Assembly (NCBI GenBank): GCA_027310565.1
Contig: DAIDAP010000016.1
Coordinates: forward strand, 25,017-89,016
Source of the DNA: Chloroflexota bacterium
GTDB lineage: Bacteria > Chloroflexota > Limnocylindria > P2-11E
Length of the DNA: 64,000 nucleotides
Direction: 5' to 3'
Positions 5,420 to 62,016 of the stretch are shown here, in pieces; position 1 is the first letter of the stretch, and each line of letters opens with the position of its first letter. Below the pieces are notes generated by a model. That model had not been told where the DNA came from and searched no databases. It saw only the letters and a list, made by a program, of their open reading frames with translations. Both the position numbers and the translations under genes were made by a program.

Positions 5420-6265
5420 TCAGCTCGCTGCGGCGGTGCGCTCGAGCGCGCCGACGAGGCCGGCGATCGCGGAGGGCAGCGCCGAGCGCTGGTCCTGGCG
5501 GGTGTCGTAGCCGCACAGGTCGATGCCGCGCACGTCCGCGGTCGTCACGACCTGCGTGACCAGCTCACGCAGCGCGGCGAGCGTCACCCCGCCCGGCGAC
5601 GGGAAGGCGACGGCCGGCATCGCCGACGGATCCACGACGTCCACGTCGACGTGCAGCCACACCGCGCGCCGGCGCGCGAAGGCGACGATCGGCGTGACGT
5701 CGCCGTGCTCGGCGTCGAAGGCGACGCGCACGAGACGCGAGCGCTCGAGGTTCTGCCGCTCGCCGGGGTCGAGCGCGCGCCCGCCCACGAGGGCGACGCG
5801 CTCGTCGGCGATGCGCCGCGCGCCGGGCCACAGGAGCGGGGCGACCGATCGGCCGCACACGTGCGCGAGGCACATGCCGCTCACGTAATGCGTCGGGGTG
5901 GTCGCGAGCGTGTTGAAGTCGCCGTGCGCGTCGACGTAGACGAGCGCGAGGTCGGGCTCGACCGCGAGCGCCCCCGAGAGCGATCCCGCGACGATCGTGC
6001 ACTCGCCGCCGAGGACGAGCACGCTCGCGCCGGAGCGGAGCGAGAGCGCGACGCCGTCGGCGAGCGTGCGGCAGGACTCGCGCGCGGCGGTGAGCCAGCG
6101 GTCGCGGGGGTTGAACGGGATGCGCGCGTGCTTCTCGGGACCGAGCGCGGGGACGAGGCGTTCGGCGAGGACGGCCGGCGCGGGCGCCAGACCGGCGAAA
6201 CGCTGTTCGGTGACCACACCGGCCTCGAACAGATGGAGCGGACGAGCCGCCATTTGTGGGCGCAT
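5420..6265 (-). CDS. Arginase/agmatinase/formiminoglutamase-family ureohydrolase
   Basis: 281 aa with binuclear-metal motifs VYVDAHGDFNT, GGECT and DVDVVDPSAMPA (DxDxxDP). Confidence 0.75.
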   Translation of the reverse strand: MRPQMAARPLHLFEAGVVTEQRFAGLAPAPAVLAERLVPALGPEKHARIPFNPRDRWLTAARESCRTLADGVALSLRSGASVLVLGGECTIVAGSLSGALAVEPDLALVYVDAHGDFNTLATTPTHYVSGMCLAHVCGRSVAPLLWPGARRIADERVALVGGRALDPGERQNLERSRLVRVAFDAEHGDVTPIVAFARRRAVWLHVDVDVVDPSAMPAVAFPSPGGVTLAALRELVTQVVTTADVRGIDLCGYDTRQDQRSALPSAIAGLVGALERTAAAS

Positions 6266-47235: not shown

Positions 47236-47672
47236 GCGAGCCGGATCACGTCCTGGGGCTGCTCGACGACCTCGTGCGTCTCGCGACGCGGCACCGCGCG
47301 CGCATCGAGGTGGAGGGCGATGGCTTCGCGGCCGCGGTCACGCCGCTCGCCTCCGGCCTCGCCACGGCCGAGATCTCGCACGAGCAGGCCGCGGCGGGCA
47401 CGGACGCCGCGTCGACGACGCCCAGGACGCAGCGCGTGCACGCGACGACGGTCGGCATCTTCAGCGCGCCGACGACGTGGAACGTCGGCGACGCGGTGAA
47501 GCGCGGCGACGTCCTCGGCGGCGTGCAGAGCCTCGGCCACGTCTCGGACGTGAAGGCGCCGGCGGACGGCAGCATCCAGGAGGTGCTCGTCACCGCCGGC
47601 GCTCCCGTGGAGTACGGTCAGCCGCTCTTCGTGATCGCGGTGAGCGAGGACCGGCGACCGTCACCGTCCTGA
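47232..47672 (+). CDS. Biotin/lipoyl-attachment-domain protein lacking the biotinyl-lysine (BADC-like BCCP paralog)
   Basis: C-terminal biotinyl-domain fold (GIFSAP...GDVLGGVQSLGHVSDVKAPADGSIQEVLV...GQPLFVI). The canonical EAMKM motif is replaced by QSLGH. GTG start overlaps the accA stop. Confidence 0.6.
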
Positions 47673-47755
47673 CGCTTTACTACGGGAGCGCTCCCGGCGC
47701 ATCATTCGGCGCCATATCCGCGCCGCGGGACGCGGCGCGCAGGGAGGAGCTCGGT

Positions 47756-48535
47756 ATGCGGCGCGTTCTCACGGTCGGCCTCGCGACGGTCCTGCTGCTC
47801 GTCGCCGGCGCGACGCCGGCCTTCGCGGCCCACTCCTGGGGCGGCTATCACTGGGCACGCACGGCGAATCCGTTCACGCTCAAGCTCGGCGACAACGTCT
47901 CCGGTCTCTGGGACTCGATGCTCGTCACCGCGTCGAGCGATTGGTCGCGGTCGACGGTGCTGGACACGACGGTCGTGGCCGGCGGCACGAGCCCGCGCTC
48001 GTGCCGTCCGACGAGCGGCCGCGTCGAGGTCTGCAGCGCCCGCTACGGCAACACCGGGTGGCTCGGGCTGGCGCAGATCTGGATCACCGGCGGCGTCCAC
48101 ATCACCCAGGGCGTGGTGAAGAACAACGACTACTACTTCGGCGGCTCGACGTACCAGTACAACAACACGGCCGAGATGCAGCACGTCATCTGCCAGGAGG
48201 TCGGACACACCTTCGGACTGGACCATCAGAGCACGAGCGGCGCGTCGCTCGGCACCTGCATGGACTATTACAAGAACACCAGCGCGTCCGACACGCAGAG
48301 CACGTCGCCGAACCAGCACGACTACGACGAGCTCGCCGCGATCTACGCGCACCTCGACGGCTCGACCACGATCCGCGCCGCGCCGAGTGGCGCGGCGCCG
48401 ATCCGGACCCCCGGCGCGGACGCGAACGGCACGCCGATCGGCGCCTCGGCGGCGCGCGGCAGCTGGTACCTGCAGGACCTCGGCGGCGGGAGCTTCCTGC
48501 TCACGCACGTCTACTGGGCGCCGGGCGCGAGCTGA
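47756..48535 (+). CDS. Secreted metzincin-like zinc metallopeptidase homolog with QExxHxxGxxH motif
   Basis: Signal peptide LLLVAGATPAFAAHS. VICQEVGHTFGLDH aligns to the metzincin motif HExxHxxGxxH with the first His replaced by Gln, and a Met-turn-like CMDYY follows. AGGGAGGAG Shine-Dalgarno sequence. Confidence 0.55.
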   Translation: MRRVLTVGLATVLLLVAGATPAFAAHSWGGYHWARTANPFTLKLGDNVSGLWDSMLVTASSDWSRSTVLDTTVVAGGTSPRSCRPTSGRVEVCSARYGNTGWLGLAQIWITGGVHITQGVVKNNDYYFGGSTYQYNNTAEMQHVICQEVGHTFGLDHQSTSGASLGTCMDYYKNTSASDTQSTSPNQHDYDELAAIYAHLDGSTTIRAAPSGAAPIRTPGADANGTPIGASAARGSWYLQDLGGGSFLLTHVYWAPGAS

Positions 48536-51229: not shown

Positions 51230-51673
51230 GTGGACATCCTCGACCGCGCGGGCATCGAAGCGCTCATCCCGCACCGCGAGCCGTTCCTCCTCATCGACCG
51301 CGTGACGGCGCTCGAGCCCGGCGTGCGCGCGGTCGCCGAGCACACCTTCAGCGGCGAGGAGTGGTACCTCCAAGGCCACTTCCCCGGGAATCCGATCGTG
51401 CCCGGCGTCATCCTCGTCGAATCGTGCGCCCAGGCCGCGACGGTCATGGCGATGAGCCTCCCCGAGTACCGCGACGGCCTCGGGCTCTTCGCGGGCATCG
51501 AGGAGATGCGCTTCAAGCGCATCGTGCGGCCGGGTGACACCGGCCGGTTCGAGGCGGTGATGGAGCGCTCGCGGCGCGGCGTCGCGCGCGTCGCCGTGAG
51601 GGCGTTCGTCGGCGACGAGCTCGCGGCGGAGGGCGTCATCGTGGCCGTGTTCCAGCCGCACGCGAAGCCGTGA
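51230..51673 (+). CDS. fabZ: 3-hydroxyacyl-ACP dehydratase FabZ
   Basis: Hot-dog fold with HFPGNPIVPGVILVE and active-site His. GTG start. Confidence 0.85.
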   Translation: MDILDRAGIEALIPHREPFLLIDRVTALEPGVRAVAEHTFSGEEWYLQGHFPGNPIVPGVILVESCAQAATVMAMSLPEYRDGLGLFAGIEEMRFKRIVRPGDTGRFEAVMERSRRGVARVAVRAFVGDELAAEGVIVAVFQPHAKP

Positions 51674-52587
51674 AGACCGTCGAGATCGTCGGCGTACCCA
51701 TGGATCTCGGCGGGAACCGCCGCGGGGTGGACATGGGTCCGTCGGCGGTGCGCTACGCCGGTCTCGCGGACACGCTCTCCGGCATCGGCTACCGCGTGCG
51801 TGACCGCGGGAACATCCGCGTCGCCGACCCGGACGAGGGCCGCGCGACGCACGAGGCGACGGCCGCCGGCGACGCCCGCCGCCCGCGCGCGCACAACGTC
51901 GACGAGATCGTGCGCGCGTGCGAGGAGCTCGCGCGGATGGTCGCGGACATCGTGCGCGCCGGAAACATCCCCATCGTGCTCGGCGGCGACCACTCCGTCG
52001 CGATCGGCACCATCGCCGGTCTCGATCGTGCGGGCAGGCGCGCCGGCGTCGTCTGGATCGACGCGCACGGGGACATCAACACCCCGGAGACCTCCCCGTC
52101 GGGGAACGTGCACGGCATGCCGTTCGCCGTCGCGCTCGGCCTCGCCGGCGATCCCTTCCCGGCGTCGCTGCGCGGGACGACCGACGGGACGCGCGGCGTG
52201 CTGCTCGGCGTCCGCGACGTCGACGAGGGCGAGAAGACGAACATCACGAGCGCCCGCGTGACCGCGATCACGATGGCGGACATCGACCGGATCGGGATGG
52301 CCGCGGCGGTGGAGAAGGCGATCGCGGTCGCCGGCCGCGACGGCCCCGTCCACCTCTCGCTCGACATGGACGCGCTCGATCCGAACGAGGCGCCGGGCGT
52401 CGGAACCCCGGTGCGCGGCGGCCTCACCTACCGCGAGGCGCAGCTCGCGATGGAGATGCTCGCGGCGTCGGGGAAGCTCGGGTCGATCGAGGTCGCCGAG
52501 GTGAACCCGATCCTCGACGCGGAGAACCGCACGGCCGGCCTCGCCGTGGAGCTCGTCGCGAGCGCGCTGGGGGAGACGATCCTCTAG
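51670..52587 (+). CDS. Arginase (ureohydrolase)
   Basis: GGDHS, DAHGD, SLDMDALDP and GGLTYRE motifs. GTG overlaps the fabZ stop. Confidence 0.8.
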   Translation: MKTVEIVGVPMDLGGNRRGVDMGPSAVRYAGLADTLSGIGYRVRDRGNIRVADPDEGRATHEATAAGDARRPRAHNVDEIVRACEELARMVADIVRAGNIPIVLGGDHSVAIGTIAGLDRAGRRAGVVWIDAHGDINTPETSPSGNVHGMPFAVALGLAGDPFPASLRGTTDGTRGVLLGVRDVDEGEKTNITSARVTAITMADIDRIGMAAAVEKAIAVAGRDGPVHLSLDMDALDPNEAPGVGTPVRGGLTYREAQLAMEMLAASGKLGSIEVAEVNPILDAENRTAGLAVELVASALGETIL

Positions 52588-53288
52588 ATCCGCTTTCTGT
52601 TCGTCACGGCGTGATGGAGCAGCGCCGCCGCTTCGCTCCGTCCGCGATCGCGGGCCACGTCGAGCGGCGTCTGGCCCTTCGCGTCGGTCGCCGATGGATC
52701 GGCACCCGCCGCGAGGAGCAGCTGCAGCACGGCGACGCTCCCCGTGAACGCGGCGGTGTGCAGCGGCGTGCCGCCGCTCGCGCTGCGCGCGTTCGGGTCG
52801 GCGCCCCCGTCGAGCAGGAGCCGGACGATGTCCTTCGCCGCGGAGCTCTCGTCGCCGGCGACCGCCGAGTGCAGCGCCGTGAACGCGCCGTCGCGTGATG
52901 CCGGGTGCACGTCGGCGCCGAGCGCGAGCAGCGCGCGCACGGCCTCGGATCGCTTGAAGAACGCGGCGAGGCCGAGCGGGAAGAACCCGTCGCCCGCCAT
53001 CGCGTTCACGACGGACGGATCGCGCTCGGCGAGCTCGCGCACCCGCGCCGCGTCGCCGACGGTCGCGGCCTCGTAGACGTCGAGGTCGGGCCGGTGCGTG
53101 AGGAGAGCGTTCGCGACCTCGGCCTTCCCGTGGTAGTAGGCGAGCAGGAGAGCGGAGGTCCCGTTCTCGTCGCGGGCTCCGAGCAGCGCCGGGTCCGCCC
53201 GCAGCCGACGCTCGACTCCCTCACGGTCGCCGCGCTTGACGGCCTCGAGGAACGCGCCTGTGTCCGCCGCCATGCCGGCAAGTGTCAC
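52584..53288 (-). CDS. Ankyrin-repeat protein
   Basis: Five or six ANK repeats (G-TPLH-AA--GH---V--LL--GAD). Stop overlaps the arginase stop (convergent). Confidence 0.8.
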   Translation of the reverse strand: MTLAGMAADTGAFLEAVKRGDREGVERRLRADPALLGARDENGTSALLLAYYHGKAEVANALLTHRPDLDVYEAATVGDAARVRELAERDPSVVNAMAGDGFFPLGLAAFFKRSEAVRALLALGADVHPASRDGAFTALHSAVAGDESSAAKDIVRLLLDGGADPNARSASGGTPLHTAAFTGSVAVLQLLLAAGADPSATDAKGQTPLDVARDRGRSEAAALLHHAVTNRKRI

Positions 53289-53362
53289 GCAAACGGGGCC
53301 GCGGGATGGACGACGGGCCCTCCGGGCGTCGTCCCGGTCGTACTCTGGCGCCGGGGGAGGTC

Positions 53363-55522
53363 GTGCAGCTCCGCCTCTTCAACACCTTGACGCGCCGCGT
53401 GGAGCCCCTCGAGCCCCTCGTCCGGGGCGAGGTCCGCATGTACACGTGCGGCCCGACCGTGTACCGGCCGGTCCACCTGGGCAACCTGCGCTCGTACCTC
53501 CTCGCCGACTGGCTCCGCCGGGCCTGCGAGCTCGCCGGCCTGCGCGTGACGGCGGTGAAGAACGTCACCGACGTCGGGCACATGCGCCAGGACGCCGTCG
53601 ACCGGGGCGAGGACAAGGTCATCGCCGCGGCGCTCGCGGAGGGCAAGACGCCCATGCAGATCGCCGCCGCCTACGAGGCCGCCTTCCACGAGGACGAGGC
53701 GGCGCTCGGCATCCTCCCGGCGTCGGTGAACCCGCGCGCGACCGAACACGTCCCGGACATGATCCGGATGATCGAGCGGCTCCTCGAGCGCGGGCACGCC
53801 TACGAGCGCGACGGCACCGTGTACTACGCGGTGCGCAGCTTCCCCGGGTACGGCGCGCTCTCGGGCAACGTGCAGGAGGCGCTCCGGCAGGGCGTGCGCG
53901 CCGAGGTCGATCCCGCCAAGCGCCACCCCTCCGACTTCACGCTCTGGAAGCGCGCGGAGCCCGGGCGGATCGCGCTCACCTGGCCCTCGCCGTGGGGCGA
54001 GGGGTACCCCGGCTGGCACATCGAGTGTTCGGCGATGAGCACGCGCTACCTCGGCGAGCGCTTCGACGTGCACACCGGCGGCGTGGACAACGTCTTCCCG
54101 CACCACGAGGACGAGATCGCGCAGTCGGAGGGCGCGCTCGGTCACCGCGTCGTGTCGCACTGGGTCCACGGGCAGCACCTGCTCGCCGACGGCGTGAAGA
54201 TGGCGAAGTCCGCGCGCAACACCATGGAGATCCGCGAGATCCGCGACCTCGGGCTCGACCCGCTCGCCTTCCGCTACCAGTGCCTGCTCACGCGTTACCG
54301 GGCGCGCATGGAGTTCACGCCGGCGGCGCTGCGGCAGGCCGCCGAGGCGCTCGACCGGCTCCGGCAGCGCGTGCGCATGCTCGCGCAGCTTTCGCCCGAG
54401 GCGCCGGCGTCGCCGGAGGCGCGCGAGCGGTGGCTGCGGCGGTTCCGCGAGCGGCTCGCCGACGACCTCGACCTGCCCGGCGCGCTCTCGGCCGCGCACG
54501 CGTGTCTCGGCGATCGCGCGATGAGCGGCCGCGATCGGCTCGTCGCGCTCCTCGACATGGACGGCGTCCTCGGCCTCGGCCTCGCGTCGGTCTCGCGCGA
54601 GCGCGACGAGGCACCCGGCGAGGTCCGCGAGGTCGCGCTCCAGCGCCGCGACGCCCGCGCCGCACGCGCGCTGCGGGCCGCCGACGCGCTCCGGGGGAAG
54701 CTCGACGGATGGCGCGTCGACGACCTCCGCGGGCCGCGCGTGCTCCTCTCGCGCGCCGATCGCCGTCTCGCGCGGCGCGGCCGACGGCGCGTCGCGTCGG
54801 GGAAGGAGCTGCCCGACCGGCGCGGGGACGCGCCGGACCGCGACTGGTCGGTCTGCGTCGTGACGCGCGAGTTCCCCGAGGATCTCGAGCGCTGCGTGCG
54901 CGCGGTGCTCGCCCACGCCCCGGCGTCGACGGAGGTGCTGGTGCTCGACCAGGGCTCGGGCGACGCGGCCGCGGAGCGCGCGCTCACGCTCGCCGCCGAC
55001 CCGCGCGTGCGCGTCGTGCTCGCCGACCGCGACCTCGGCGAGGGCGCGGGGCGCAACGCGCTGCTGCGCATCGCGCGCGGCCGCTCGCTCCTCCAGCTCG
55101 ATCCGTCCGTCGAGATCAGCGGCGACCTGTTCGCCGCGCTCGACGCCGCGCTCGCCGCGGAGGACGTCGGCGTGGCCGGTCCGTGGGGCCTGCGCGCCGT
55201 CGACGGGCTGAAGCGGTTCGACGAGGTCGCCGCGGGCGAGGTCGACGCGGTCCAGGGCCACTGCTTCGCCACCCGCCGCGACCCGCTGCTCGCGATCGGC
55301 GGCTTCGACGAGCGCTACCGCTTCTACCGCAACCTCGACATCGCGACCTCGCTCGCGCTGCGCGAGGTCGGCCTGCGCGCGGTCGCCGCGGGCGCCGGCG
55401 CGGCGGCGCGGCACGCGCACCGTGGCTGGGAGCGGCTCGCGGAGGACGAGCGGGCCAAGCGCAGCCGCCGCAACCACGACCGCATGGTGCGCCGCTTCGG
55501 CGGCGCGGCGGCGCGGTCGTGA
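53363..55522 (+). CDS. cysS: Cysteinyl-tRNA synthetase fused to a C-terminal family-2 glycosyltransferase domain
   Basis: The N-terminal roughly 480 aa is a complete class-I CysRS: Zn ligands (YTCGPT, HIECSAM, HHEDE), KMAKS, an anticodon-binding region, and a C-terminus aligning to E. coli CysRS. The HIGH motif appears as PTVYRPVHLGN. From about nt 54845 a GT2 domain follows (SVCVVTREF...ERCVRAVL...EVLVLDQGSGD...IGGFDERYRFYRNLDIATSLAL). I take the GTG start, which has a GGGGGAGG Shine-Dalgarno sequence; the ORF-track ATG is at 53282. Confidence 0.8.
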   Translation: MQLRLFNTLTRRVEPLEPLVRGEVRMYTCGPTVYRPVHLGNLRSYLLADWLRRACELAGLRVTAVKNVTDVGHMRQDAVDRGEDKVIAAALAEGKTPMQIAAAYEAAFHEDEAALGILPASVNPRATEHVPDMIRMIERLLERGHAYERDGTVYYAVRSFPGYGALSGNVQEALRQGVRAEVDPAKRHPSDFTLWKRAEPGRIALTWPSPWGEGYPGWHIECSAMSTRYLGERFDVHTGGVDNVFPHHEDEIAQSEGALGHRVVSHWVHGQHLLADGVKMAKSARNTMEIREIRDLGLDPLAFRYQCLLTRYRARMEFTPAALRQAAEALDRLRQRVRMLAQLSPEAPASPEARERWLRRFRERLADDLDLPGALSAAHACLGDRAMSGRDRLVALLDMDGVLGLGLASVSRERDEAPGEVREVALQRRDARAARALRAADALRGKLDGWRVDDLRGPRVLLSRADRRLARRGRRRVASGKELPDRRGDAPDRDWSVCVVTREFPEDLERCVRAVLAHAPASTEVLVLDQGSGDAAAERALTLAADPRVRVVLADRDLGEGAGRNALLRIARGRSLLQLDPSVEISGDLFAALDAALAAEDVGVAGPWGLRAVDGLKRFDEVAAGEVDAVQGHCFATRRDPLLAIGGFDERYRFYRNLDIATSLALREVGLRAVAAGAGAAARHAHRGWERLAEDERAKRSRRNHDRMVRRFGGAAARS

Positions 55523-56256
55523 GCCGCGGGCGGCTCGTGCTCTGCGGGTCCGGCGAGTTCACGCCGGCGATGGCCGCCGTCGACCGCGAGATTCTGGACG
55601 GGATCGGCAGGCGCGCGCCGCGGGTCGCCATCGTGCCGACGGCCGCGGGGCTCGAGGACACGCCGCGCGCGTGGGTCGCGATGGGGTCGGAGCACTTCCG
55701 CGCTCTCGGCGCTGAGCCGGTCGGCGTGATGGTGCTCCGGCGCGCGGACGCCGAGGACGCGGCGTGCTGCGACGCGATCGCCGGCGCCGACTGGATCTAC
55801 TTCTCCGGCGGCCAGCCCGGCCACCTCGTGGACACGCTCGCGGGCTCGCGTTTCTGGGACGCGGTCCGCGCGCGGCTCCGCGACGGCGCCGTCCTCGCCG
55901 GCGCGAGCGCGGGCGCGATGATGCTCGGCGGACGGACCTTCGACCCCCGCGGACGCGACGCCGACGGCCTGCCCACGAGCATGGGCATCCGCGAGGGGCT
56001 GGGGGTCCTGCCGGAGGTGATCGTCGCCCCGCACTTCGACGCCATCCCGGAGGCGCGCTGGCGGCACTGGGCGGCGCTGCGGCGCGACGGGGACCGCGTC
56101 CTCGGCATCGACGAGGAAACCGCGCTCGTCGAGCAGCGGGCCGGCTGGAGCGTCCGCGGACGGGGCCGCGTGACGATCGTCGACCGCGGTGGCGCCGGCG
56201 TCGCGCACCCCAGCGGCGCTCGGCTCGACGGCCTCGCGCGCGTCGCCCTTCCCTAG
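55519..56256 (+). CDS. Peptidase S51 family protein (cyanophycinase/dipeptidase-E-like)
   Basis: LVLCGSGEF, IYFSGGQPGHL, nucleophile elbow LAGASAGAMMLG and APHFD His. GTG overlaps the cysS-GT2 stop (GTGA). Confidence 0.75.
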   Translation: MSRGRLVLCGSGEFTPAMAAVDREILDGIGRRAPRVAIVPTAAGLEDTPRAWVAMGSEHFRALGAEPVGVMVLRRADAEDAACCDAIAGADWIYFSGGQPGHLVDTLAGSRFWDAVRARLRDGAVLAGASAGAMMLGGRTFDPRGRDADGLPTSMGIREGLGVLPEVIVAPHFDAIPEARWRHWAALRRDGDRVLGIDEETALVEQRAGWSVRGRGRVTIVDRGGAGVAHPSGARLDGLARVALP

Positions 56257-59422: not shown

Positions 59423-60694
59423 TCAGAGCCCGAGCAGCGTCACCGCCACCAGGGCGAGCGAGAGCGCCGACGCGACGACGGCGATGGCCGCGCCCGCGAC
59501 GGACGAGAGGCGCCCGTTGCGCTGGTCGCCCATGACGCTCCGGTCGCCGGCGAGCCGCAGGATGAACGCGAGCACGATCGGCAGCAGCAGCCCCTGCACC
59601 GCCTGCGACACGAGGATGAACTGGATGAGCAGGCCCTCCGGAAAGAGCACGACCGCGACGCCGCCCGCGACGAGCAGCAGCGTGAAGAGCCCCATGAACA
59701 CCGGCGCGTCGCCGAAGTCGTGGCTGATGCCGGACTCCCAGCCGAAGGCCTCGCAGATCGCGTAGCTCGTCGACAGCGGCATCACGAGCGCGGCGAGCAT
59801 CGACGCGCCGAAGAGGCCGACGCCGAAGAGGAGCTCCGCGCCGCCGCCGGCGAGCGGCTCGAGCGCCCGCGCGGCGTCCGCGGCCCTCTCGACGAGGATC
59901 CCGTTCGGGAAGAGGACCGCGGCGGTCACGACGACCATGAAGAGCCCGTTCAGGCCGGTGAGGACCGCGCCCATGAGCACGTCGACCCGGGTGAACCGGT
60001 ACGCGTCGCGGTCGATGCCCTTGTCGACGATCGACGCCTGTATGTAGAACTGCATGTACGGTGTGATCGTCGTCCCGACGAGCGCGACCGCCGCGACGAG
60101 CGCGCCCTGCGCCGACGGCAGCGTCGGCACGACGAGCCCCTGCAGCGCGGCCGACCAGTCCGGCCGCACGACGAACGCGGCGACCGGGTAGGCGAGGAAG
60201 GCCAGCACGAGCACGAACAGCGCGCGCTCGACGACGCGGTAGGTGAAGAACACGACCAGCACCCAGATGACGAGCCCGGCGATCGGGACCGAGACGATGG
60301 AGGGGACGCCGAGCAGCCCGAGGCTCGCGGCGACGCCCGCGTACTCCGCGGCGACGTTCACTCCGTTCGCGACGAGCAGCGCGGCCATCGCCAGGATCGT
60401 CCAGCGCACGCCGAAGCGCTCGCGGATGAGGTCGGAGAGCCCCTTGCCGGTGACCGCGCCCATGCGCGCGCACATCTCCTGGATGACGACGAGACCGACC
60501 GTGGAGACGAGCAGCAGCCACAGCAGCGCGTAGCCGTAGCGCGCGCCGACGGCCGAGTAGGTCGTGACGCCGCCGGCGTCGTTGCCGGCGAATCCGGTGA
60601 TGATGCCCGGCCCCATGACGGCGAGGAACGCGAGCAGCGTGGCGCGGCGGCCACGGGCGGTCTGGCGGACCGTCGTCCCCACGCCGCCGATCAC
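59423..60694 (-). CDS. NRAMP (SLC11) family transporter with non-canonical metal-binding motifs (NRMT-like, predicted Mg2+ rather than Mn2+/Fe2+)
   Basis: 423 aa with about 11 TM helices. The TM1 region GPGIITGFAGNDAGGVTTYSAVGARYGY aligns to MntH GPGFLVAVGYMDPGNWATS...YGY, so DPGN becomes DAGG. The TM6 region GTTITPYMQFY aligns to GATVMPHNLY, so MPH becomes TPY. ATG forms an ATGA overlap with the stop of the upstream gene. Confidence 0.85.
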   Translation of the reverse strand: MIGGVGTTVRQTARGRRATLLAFLAVMGPGIITGFAGNDAGGVTTYSAVGARYGYALLWLLLVSTVGLVVIQEMCARMGAVTGKGLSDLIRERFGVRWTILAMAALLVANGVNVAAEYAGVAASLGLLGVPSIVSVPIAGLVIWVLVVFFTYRVVERALFVLVLAFLAYPVAAFVVRPDWSAALQGLVVPTLPSAQGALVAAVALVGTTITPYMQFYIQASIVDKGIDRDAYRFTRVDVLMGAVLTGLNGLFMVVVTAAVLFPNGILVERAADAARALEPLAGGGAELLFGVGLFGASMLAALVMPLSTSYAICEAFGWESGISHDFGDAPVFMGLFTLLLVAGGVAVVLFPEGLLIQFILVSQAVQGLLLPIVLAFILRLAGDRSVMGDQRNGRLSSVAGAAIAVVASALSLALVAVTLLGL

Positions 60695-61944
60695 CGCGCG
60701 ATCGACCGGAGCGACCTCTTCTTCCAGCCGCGCGGGAGCATGAGCTCGACGACGTCGTCGATCGTGACGGTGCCGATGAGCCTGCGCCGCGCGTCGACGA
60801 CGGGCAGGGCGAGCAGGTCGTACTTCGCGATGAGCGAGGCGACCTCCTCCTTGGGCGTGGTGGCCTCCACCTTGAGCACGTGCGGGTTCATGACCTGCGC
60901 GAGCCGCTCGTCCGGCTTCGCCACGACGAGGTCACGCAGCGACACGACGCCCTCGAGGCGCCCCTCGGCGTCGACGACGTAGAGGTAGTACGCGAGCTCG
61001 GGATCGGGCTTCAGCGCGCGCAGGCGCTCGATGGCCTGCGCGGCCGTCTGCTCGGCGGCGAGCGAGACGACGTCCGTGGTCATGATCCCGCCGGCGGAGT
61101 CCTCGGGGTAGGTGAGGAGCTCCTCGACGTCCTCGGCCTCCTCCTTCTCCATGAGGTCGACGAGCTCCTCGCGGCGCTCTTCGGAAAGGTCCTGGAGCAG
61201 ATCGGCGGCCTCGTCCGGCGCCATCTCCTCGAGGATGTCGGCGGCGCGCTCCTCGGTGAGGTCGCTGATGATCGCGGCCTGCATCTCGGGCTCGACCTCC
61301 TGGAGCGCCTCGGCGGCGGTCTCGACGTCGAGCTGCTCGAACACCGCCCGGCGCTCGTCGGCGGCCATCTCCTCGACGATGTCCGCGATGTCCGCGGGGT
61401 GGAGAAGCGCGAGCTTCGTGCGCGGGACGGTGACGCGGACGTTCGCCTCGGGCGCGTCGAGCGGCTCCACCAGGTGCCACGGGATGATCCCGCGCGGGAG
61501 CTTGCGCCCCGCGATGCGCACGACGCGCTCGGCGAGGGGTTCGGCGCCCACGCGCCGCAGCAGCCCGCGCAGCCCGACGTCCGCGCCGACCAGCCGCAGC
61601 TGTCCGTCCACGTCGGAGAGCTGGAGGTCGTTCACGCGCACGATCTTCGCGCCGTGCGTGTCGACGACCTGTTTGTCGAGCAGGTCGCGCGCCAGGCGCA
61701 GGGCCTCGGGCGGGAGCGCCGCGTCCTGGAGCGAGTCGAGCCGGGCGCGCAGGCGCAGGTGCCCGATCTCCTGCGCGAGGTCGCTCCAGCGGAGCACCCG
61801 CTCGCCGGCGCCGGTGGCGAGGATCGCCCACTGGATGGCGGGGAACTGCCCCTGCGGGACCACGGCCAGGTCCTTCAGGGTCCCGACCTCGTTCCCGTTG
61901 GGCTCGATGACGCGGCGGTGCTGAATCTCGGAGAGGTACGGCAT
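60691..61944 (-). CDS. Soluble PRC-barrel + MgtE-N + tandem-CBS protein (MgtE cytoplasmic sensor module without the transmembrane pore)
   Basis: N-terminal PRC-barrel-like repeats, an acidic MgtE_N helical domain (ADIADIVEEMAADE...ILEEMAPDEAADLL) and two CBS motifs (IMTTDVVSL..., VVSLRDLVV...). It ends right after CBS2. An alternative TTG start lies at 62007. Confidence 0.8.
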   Translation of the reverse strand: MPYLSEIQHRRVIEPNGNEVGTLKDLAVVPQGQFPAIQWAILATGAGERVLRWSDLAQEIGHLRLRARLDSLQDAALPPEALRLARDLLDKQVVDTHGAKIVRVNDLQLSDVDGQLRLVGADVGLRGLLRRVGAEPLAERVVRIAGRKLPRGIIPWHLVEPLDAPEANVRVTVPRTKLALLHPADIADIVEEMAADERRAVFEQLDVETAAEALQEVEPEMQAAIISDLTEERAADILEEMAPDEAADLLQDLSEERREELVDLMEKEEAEDVEELLTYPEDSAGGIMTTDVVSLAAEQTAAQAIERLRALKPDPELAYYLYVVDAEGRLEGVVSLRDLVVAKPDERLAQVMNPHVLKVEATTPKEEVASLIAKYDLLALPVVDARRRLIGTVTIDDVVELMLPRGWKKRSLRSIAR

Positions 61945-62016
61945 CGGTCGTTCGGGCGCAAGGGTACCGCTCTTCGCGCTCGTCTCCTCGGCCGTGATGT
62001 GGGACAATCAAGACCC

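Follow-up and report, generated by a model that had tools for sequence, protein, structure and literature searches.

The cysteinyl-tRNA synthetase (CysRS) encoded in a 64,000-nucleotide stretch of DNA from a Chloroflexota bacterium (contig DAIDAP010000016.1; the whole stretch is called the window below) continues without interruption into an additional domain with the predicted GT-A fold of family 2 (GT2) glycosyltransferases, which is named GT2L (GT2-like) here. The synthetase is ordinary; what is new is the family to which the appended domain belongs and the strict link of this family to CysS_C, the C-terminal anticodon-binding module of CysRS. When all fetched proteins were searched with hidden Markov models built in this work, 308 members of the GT2L family had 45 or more residues ahead of the domain, and in 305 of these that part holds CysS_C or a whole CysRS; the same search of generic GT2 proteins gave 0 of 90. 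Judged by this co-occurrence, GT2L tracks tRNA recognition and not cysteine activation, and its constant association with CysS_C suggests a job on tRNA-Cys.

The synthetase half and the spread of the fusion

The maximal open reading frame (ORF) of the gene, 53282..55522 on the forward strand, comprises 746 codons with zero stops between the CysRS and GT2-like halves, as had been stated in a preliminary description of this DNA made from its letters alone. Because all homologues start at a QLRLFNTL motif, which corresponds to GTG 53363, and because a Shine-Dalgarno-like run, GGGGGAGG, lies just 5' of this codon, GTG 53363 is most likely the start, giving a protein of 719 residues.

By model score, motif content and predicted structure, the CysRS half is a normal, complete cysteinyl-tRNA synthetase. 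It scores 380.3 bits against the cysS equivalog model TIGR00435 (NCBIfam; cutoff 340; ORF residues 30-475). In an alignment of 41 fusion proteins, the zinc/cysteine ligands C29, C222 and H247 (719-residue numbering) are invariant and E251 is nearly invariant; we take their counterparts in E. coli CysRS to be C28, C209, H234 and E238. The CysS_C module aligns to residues ~400-447 of the E. coli enzyme (1li5), including the QR.DAR...AADA.R..L motif, and relatives have a match to Pfam PF23493 (CysS_C) at this position. A full-length AlphaFold (AF2) model (pLDDT 88, pTM 0.81) matches 1u0b_B, E. coli CysRS from its complex with tRNA-Cys, in Foldseek with a TM of 0.82 over all 461 residues (482 columns aligned), and both the anticodon-binding helical domain and the C-terminal CysS_C are present in the sequence and Foldseek alignments. 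These results bear out the preliminary description, which had recognized a complete CysRS with its Cys/His/Glu ligands, KMAKS and anticodon domain, and a C-terminus aligning to E. coli CysRS; the alignment in fact reaches residue 447. The HLGN variant of the HIGH motif, to which attention had also been drawn, is indeed present. However, it is not a peculiarity, since the solved Elizabethkingia CysRS (PDB 6UJD) reads VHLGN and shares a GH...D...D insertion with the fusion; HLGN is therefore the mark of an ordinary CysRS subtype, and it was rejected as a special feature. Overall, the N-terminal 464 residues match E. coli CysRS (1LI5/1U0B) and the HLGN-type 6UJD in ligands, motifs, helical domain and CysS_C, whereas, unlike the solved enzymes, the window protein adds ~255 residues of linker and GT-A domain after CysS_C. 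No solved CysRS chain among the PDB matches exceeds 501 residues.

The closest protein matches of the fusion belong to Candidatus Limnocylindria (Chloroflexota), with identities of up to 86%, and more than 120 protein clusters of 690-740 residues share the fusion architecture at 67-86% identity. Where these proteins have a database name, it is 'cysteine--tRNA ligase', a label under which the GT2L domain is invisible in annotation. In a scan of one genome per species, relatives of the C-terminal domain turned up in at least 594 genomes. The analysis covered the best 80 of these, which come from Limnocylindria and Dehalococcoidia, with SAR202 and closed long-read chromosomes among them; complete Dehalococcoidia chromosomes that bear the fusion include OY282371.1, OZ220748.1 and OZ240222.1. 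Together with one syntenic Limnocylindria locus fetched separately, the 80 provide 81 loci (40 from Limnocylindria and 41 from Dehalococcoidia). The CysRS catalytic domain lies directly upstream of GT2L in 75 of the 81, in ORFs of ~694-798 residues, and the contig ends first in the other six. Between the two classes, identity is 58-65% in the CysRS half and 36-45% in GT2L. In Dehalococcoidia, the genes beside the fusion change from one locus to the next (pyruvate kinase, Na/Ca exchanger, amidohydrolase, CoA-transferase, phosphotriesterase, HEAT protein) and no conserved operon surrounds it, as is expected of a stand-alone housekeeping gene.

Across these genomes, the fusion is thus no rarity and, to judge from them, is the standard form of cysS in Limnocylindria and many Dehalococcoidia. 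It probably serves these Limnocylindria and Dehalococcoidia as their housekeeping CysRS and as their only one; no second cysS occurs within the 64-kb window. A frameshift or stop between the two domains, which the preliminary description had named as the sign of an artefact, is not the case in these independent genomes. Because the same uninterrupted fusion, an ORF of ~715-800 residues, recurs in the >120 clusters and in the 81-locus set, with independent projects and closed long-read Dehalococcoidia chromosomes among the sources, an assembly artefact is excluded, and the probability that an assembly or frameshift error has joined two genes is practically negligible.

The gene order arginase-ankyrin-cysS/GT2L-(S51)-FabF, in which S51 denotes the peptidase gene considered below, was also seen at 60-80% identity in contigs titled Acidiferrales, Bathyarchaeia archaeon and Udaeobacter (L011, L030 and L035); these are probably mis-binned contigs in those metagenome-assembled genomes (MAGs).

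The GT2L domain and its pairing with CysS_C

The region after CysRS had been described as a GT-A family 2 domain, an assignment to be abandoned if the region failed to match GT2 profiles. Glycos_transf_2 (PF00535) matches ORF residues 523-632 with 41.3 bits, well clear of the gathering cutoff of 23.3, and a GT-A Rossmann-like fold is predicted confidently, so the assignment holds. Sequence searches of the PDB with the domain gave weak generic GT2 matches only. Profile-profile comparison (hhalign) with the nearest free relatives, which are WbbL-like GT2 rhamnosyltransferases, gave a probability of 99.9%, and by this measure GT2L is a descendant of WbbL-like GT2 glycosyltransferases.

The active-site motifs of GT2L are remodelled, which makes it a distinct subfamily. 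All family members have Ser or His at the third position of the DxD motif (which is NPD in WbbL-like enzymes), and the DPS of the window protein is accordingly as degenerate as had been reported. The first Asp of the motif varies in free-standing members, and an invariant Glu stands two residues after the Ser/His throughout the family. The x-E-D-x-D region reads Y-R-x-x-D, of which Arg and Asp are invariant, and H-x-H-x-x-W and S-[KR]-[KR]-N are invariant as well. In some members the motif is D-x-H, similar to the metal site of GalNAc-transferases. In comparison with WbbL-like rhamnosyltransferases and GT-A GT2 enzymes such as PcManGT (6YV7), SpsA (1H7L) and K4CP (2Z86), GT2L therefore differs in having Ser/His for the third DxD Asp, R-x-x-D for E-D-x-D, new invariant Glu, Arg and His-x-His-x-x-Trp residues, and an obligate N-terminal CysS_C. 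The GT2L pocket of the window protein includes E584, D659, H684 and H686. The polar residues of the pocket region (E, R, D, H, H, W, S, N) are invariant among members of ~30% overall identity, and such invariance in distant members argues for a working pocket and not for decay.

When 1.8 billion representatives were searched with a GT2L profile, the proteins found were of three kinds, namely CysRS fusions of 709-818 residues, proteins composed of CysS_C and GT2L, and a single S51-CysS_C-GT2L protein. The proteins of the second kind are many; they are free-standing, ~290-345 (around 315) residues long and without the catalytic domain, and Pfam CysS_C ('Cysteinyl-tRNA ligase anticodon binding domain') is significant in them, for example with 41.8 bits in P0189. 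They are found in cultured Ktedonobacteria (Ktedonobacter sp. SOSP1-85, with KSD_09820, Ktedonospora formicarum, Ktedonosporobacter rubrisoli, Thermosporothrix and Dictyobacter vulcani) and also in MAGs of Actinomycetota and Patescibacteria. Their genes do not adjoin cysS, and their neighbours are not conserved. These free-standing forms retain the positions at which CysS_C is conserved (R..AR, AD..R, G, D); we assume these positions to be contacts to the GCA anticodon in 1U0B.

Upstream of two of the free-standing genes, those of Ktedonobacter sp. SOSP1-85 (L084 7001-7993) and Ktedonosporobacter rubrisoli (L085 7001-7948), lie a ManC-like NDP-sugar pyrophosphorylase and MurJ-type flippases; both are followed by a peptidase M3, and one of the two genes has a gamma-glutamyltranspeptidase directly upstream. 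In addition, some GT2L members carry extra C-terminal tails (P0186, 331 residues; P0213, 818 residues; P0214, 802 residues); the tail of one member is His-rich (HGHDHAYHVDGEHTH...HPHYH) and could bind metal.

Possible functions of the GT2L domain

We propose that CysS_C acts as an address label by which GT2L would be directed to the anticodon end of bound tRNA-Cys. There GT2L would carry out an accessory reaction directed at tRNA-Cys, most likely the transfer of a sugar or another nucleotide-activated group to the tRNA, and in the fused form this reaction would take place on the same enzyme that charges tRNA-Cys. To this reading as a whole, with targeting by CysS_C, an accessory reaction that is most plausibly a group transfer, and coupling to charging in the fusion, we assign a probability of roughly 40%. 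A more specific version is doubtful, although it would be the more consequential: GT2L may be a CysS_C-guided, tRNA-Cys-specific modifying enzyme and as such the first bacterial glycosyltransferase or group transferase acting on a tRNA or on the cysteinyl group that Cys-tRNA-Cys carries, with charging physically coupled and the S51 protein as an optional editing or removal partner.

Several points weigh against the proposal that GT2L works on tRNA-Cys. No tRNA-Cys gene lies near the fusion in the window or in the 49 loci checked, and we know of no organism in which tRNA-Cys is glycosylated. Outside Limnocylindria, GT2L is acidic (median isoelectric point ~5.5) and gives no electrostatic support for RNA binding; the basic isoelectric point in Limnocylindria is probably a GC effect, and a contact of GT2L with RNA is something that we infer. 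CysS_C could also have been retained merely because it packs on GT2L. The ordered linker and the pTM of 0.81 in the full-length AF2 model predict a fixed CysS_C/GT2L geometry, and such a rigid unit fits this explanation too. Finally, some free-standing members lack the nucleotide-binding Asp of the D-x-G-S motif, and GT2L may not be a transferase because the metal-binding Asp of DxD is lost and one alignment puts a variable residue at the position of the catalytic base.

The remodelled motifs thus suggest that GT2L is either a transferase with an altered metal/base arrangement or a pseudo-enzyme with a conserved pocket. As a non-catalytic pseudo-glycosyltransferase, it would be attached to the anticodon module for structure, oligomerisation, ligand sensing or partner binding, and might modulate the binding of tRNA-Cys or couple charging to the nucleotide-sugar pool. 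This alternative is possible, if on balance doubtful. It would account for the Ser or His at the third DxD position in every member, the variable nucleotide-binding Asp of the free-standing members and the predicted rigid unit. The two alignments of the catalytic-base 'ED' position disagree: HMMER against PDB 6p61 places a variable residue (N/H/L/M/T/I) there, as would be expected of a pseudo-enzyme, whereas hhalign sets the invariant Asp of Y-R-x-x-D on the catalytic-base Asp. The likeness of D-x-H in some members to the GalNAc-transferase metal site also speaks for catalysis, and an invariant polar pocket set is a pattern that fits catalysis or specific ligand binding better than a scaffold.

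A different question is whether GT2L has anything to do with tRNA. It may be an ordinary envelope or small-molecule glycosyltransferase with a lipid-, sugar- or peptide-linked acceptor, which became fused to cysS by chance and whose split-off forms keep CysS_C only as a folding remnant. The WbbL-like rhamnosyltransferases that are its nearest free relatives act on PP-lipid acceptors, the Ktedonobacteria genes have the ManC-like pyrophosphorylase and MurJ flippases in their vicinity, a Patescibacteria gene has PAP2 and GT4 neighbours, the window fusion lies within a fatty-acid synthesis cluster, and the acidity of GT2L fits as well. However, a chance fusion leaves unexplained the 99% co-occurrence with CysS_C over several phyla and the persistence of the module's own conserved residues in free-standing proteins. 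In addition, neither a membrane segment nor a conserved polysaccharide operon was seen, and the neighbours mentioned are not conserved. We consider this explanation unlikely.

The gene that directly follows the fusion encodes a Peptidase_S51 protein (PF03575, 74.3 bits; gathering cutoff 23.9). Its closest PDB match is the 'cyanophycinase-like exopeptidase' 6NQC (E 8e-28), and its GASAG nucleophile motif aligns with GCSAG of this protein, in keeping with the intact elbow noted earlier. The window protein has PF03575 and the G-x-S-A-G motif in common with 6NQC and the cyanophycinase-PepE S51 peptidases, but unlike cyanophycinase it falls below the cutoff of the equivalog model TIGR02069 (96.9 bits; cutoff 126.6). 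S51 follows the fusion in 28 of the 40 Limnocylindria loci, is present as a fragment in one and is absent in 11, in 10 of which FabF follows directly or after another gene; it occurs in 0 of the 41 Dehalococcoidia loci. Because it is patchy in Limnocylindria and absent in Dehalococcoidia, S51 is an accessory, clade-limited partner, and in the proposed mechanism this cyanophycinase-like hydrolase would be an optional partner in Limnocylindria. An S51-like domain is also joined to CysS_C and GT2L in a single protein of 593 residues (P0267), in which it is 27% identical to the window S51 with the Ser/His/Glu positions aligned. The occurrence of this architecture in two independent assemblies (L086 7001-8782, on a 376-kb contig of JGI 3300045950, and L087) argues that the association with S51 is not purely positional. 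The coupling to S51 asserted in the preliminary description thus survives in part: the triple fusion argues for some link, and the coupling is limited to one clade.

The preliminary description had also considered a mycothiol-like logic. In such a mycothiol/bacillithiol-like pathway, a glycoside made by GT2L would receive cysteine from the CysRS catalytic site or from Cys-tRNA, and S51 would be the amidase; the product would be a new Cys-containing thiol or an S-glycosylated product. The window protein does share the catalytic fold and the Cys-activation chemistry with MshC, a CysRS paralogue (PDB 3C8Z/8HFM; sequence E 6e-50, TM 0.83). However, it scores as cysS (380 > 340) and not as MshC, reaching 227.9 bits against model TIGR03447 with its cutoff of 485.1, and membership in MshC was rejected. 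MshC chains have 413-414 residues and end before CysS_C, whereas the window protein retains the tRNA anticodon module and, with it, both anticodon-binding domains; MshA/B/D-like partners, as in the mycothiol system, are not present here. Furthermore, GT2L persists in many proteins without a Cys-activating domain, S51 is absent from all Dehalococcoidia loci and from 11 of the 40 Limnocylindria loci, and GT2L presumably lies at the anticodon end, which in the E. coli complex (1U0B) is far from the aminoacylation site. Because GT2L tracks tRNA recognition rather than cysteine activation, the mycothiol-like reading is disfavoured, and we regard it as improbable.

Window features, precedents and significance

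The coordinates of the fusion gene, its parts and its immediate neighbours are collected in Table 1.

Table 1. Features of the cysS-GT2L region, in window positions
Feature	Position	Strand	Remarks
Ankyrin-repeat gene	52584..53288	-	Divergent from the fusion; ~75 nt from the 53363 start
cysS-GT2L fusion gene	53363..55522	+	719 residues + stop; start by homologues and SD-like GGGGGAGG
CysRS class-I catalytic domain (Pfam tRNA-synt_1e)	53411..54343	+	ORF residues 44-354, E 1e-91
HLGN, HIGH-motif variant	53474..53485	+	Conserved in the family
KMAKS (KMSKS motif)	54197..54211	+	K279 and M280 invariant in 41 fusions
CysS_C-type C-terminal anticodon-binding module	54617..54754	+	Residues 419-464; two helices and a beta-hairpin (AF2 secondary structure)
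Linker with conserved S-x-x-E-[LV]-P-x-R motif	54755..54838	+	pLDDT 73-90 in the full-length model
GT2-like (GT2L) GT-A fold domain	54839..55519	+
D-P-S-V-E, degenerate DxD	55100..55114	+	D-P-S at 55100-55108; third Asp replaced by Ser, then family-invariant Glu
Y-R-N-L-D, remodelled 'ED.D' region	55325..55339	+	Invariant Arg and Asp
R-H-A-H-R-G-W, invariant His-x-His-x-x-Trp motif	55409..55429	+
Peptidase_S51 (cyanophycinase-like exopeptidase) gene	55519..56256	+	PF03575, E 1e-20

The fusion is flanked upstream by FabD, AccC, FabZ, arginase and the ankyrin-repeat gene on the opposite strand, and downstream, beyond S51, by FabF and BCCP, so that its place in a fatty-acid-synthesis cluster with arginase and ankyrin genes adjoining is as first described. 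The same is true of the GTGA-type overlap, in which the stop of the fusion, TGA 55520-55522, overlaps GTG 55519 of the S51 ORF. Most Limnocylindria loci retain the ankyrin-repeat neighbour, which Dehalococcoidia lack.

The G+C content of the window is ~73%. Long overlapping ORFs in alternative frames occur on both strands, such as a 1006-residue ORF at 53236-56256 (+) across the fusion and S51; these are Arg/Ala/Pro-rich products of a 73-77% G+C composition and not genes. Elsewhere in the window, an ORF at 47477-48535 (+) combines a HExxH-like metalloprotease motif, QEVGHTFGLDH, with a hydrophobic N-terminal stretch and has no Pfam match at E<=1e-5. A second arginase-family coding region lies at 5582-6109 (-) and is 32% identical to the arginase at 51670-52587. 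The region 59423-62007 (-) encodes an Nramp transporter and, after it, a PRC-barrel/MgtE_N/CBS protein without the MgtE membrane domain, and this pair is also found in the syntenic Limnocylindria locus L003.

Full-text literature searches on CysRS-glycosyltransferase fusions, appended domains of aminoacyl-tRNA synthetases (aaRSs), Chloroflexi CysRS and tRNA glycosylation returned no description of a CysRS-GT fusion or of a CysS_C-GT2 family; the statement in the preliminary description that a CysRS-GT2 architecture is not described is in line with this. Enzyme domains on bacterial aaRSs are rare, and where they have been studied, as in LysX and the MetRS-aminotransferase, they have revealed new biology. 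LysX of mycobacteria is a LysRS-MprF fusion that makes lysyl-lipids, its second domain using aminoacyl-tRNA at the acceptor end. An aminotransferase-MetRS fusion, again an aaRS with a second enzyme domain, is reported from Mycoplasma penetrans (PMC7694997). The window protein resembles both in that an aaRS and a second, enzyme-like domain are contained in one polypeptide. In contrast, the partner domains are unrelated, and the domain appended here follows the anticodon-binding module, whereas LysX works at the acceptor end.

To our knowledge, tRNA-Cys (GCA) is not a queuosine tRNA. The glycosyltransferases that make galactosyl- and mannosyl-queuosine in eukaryotes are nevertheless of interest, since they are reported to modify an anticodon-loop nucleoside of specific tRNAs (PMC12518689, PMC7430669). 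They would be a precedent for a glycosyltransferase acting on the anticodon loop of a tRNA, by functional analogy only; unlike the target proposed here, theirs is the queuosine of animal tRNA-Tyr and tRNA-Asp.

Overall, the CysRS of two abundant and mostly uncultured classes of Chloroflexota, with soil Limnocylindria and with marine or subsurface Dehalococcoidia such as SAR202 among their members, bears a conserved extra domain. The near-obligate pairing of GT2L with the anticodon module of tRNA-Cys recognition defines a family of several hundred sequences, and it predicts binding or modification of tRNA-Cys. Because free-standing copies are present in cultured Ktedonobacteria, genetics and biochemistry on this family are feasible. 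Should GT2L turn out to have no catalytic activity, it would remain a clear example of a glycosyltransferase fold that was taken up as an appendage of an aaRS.

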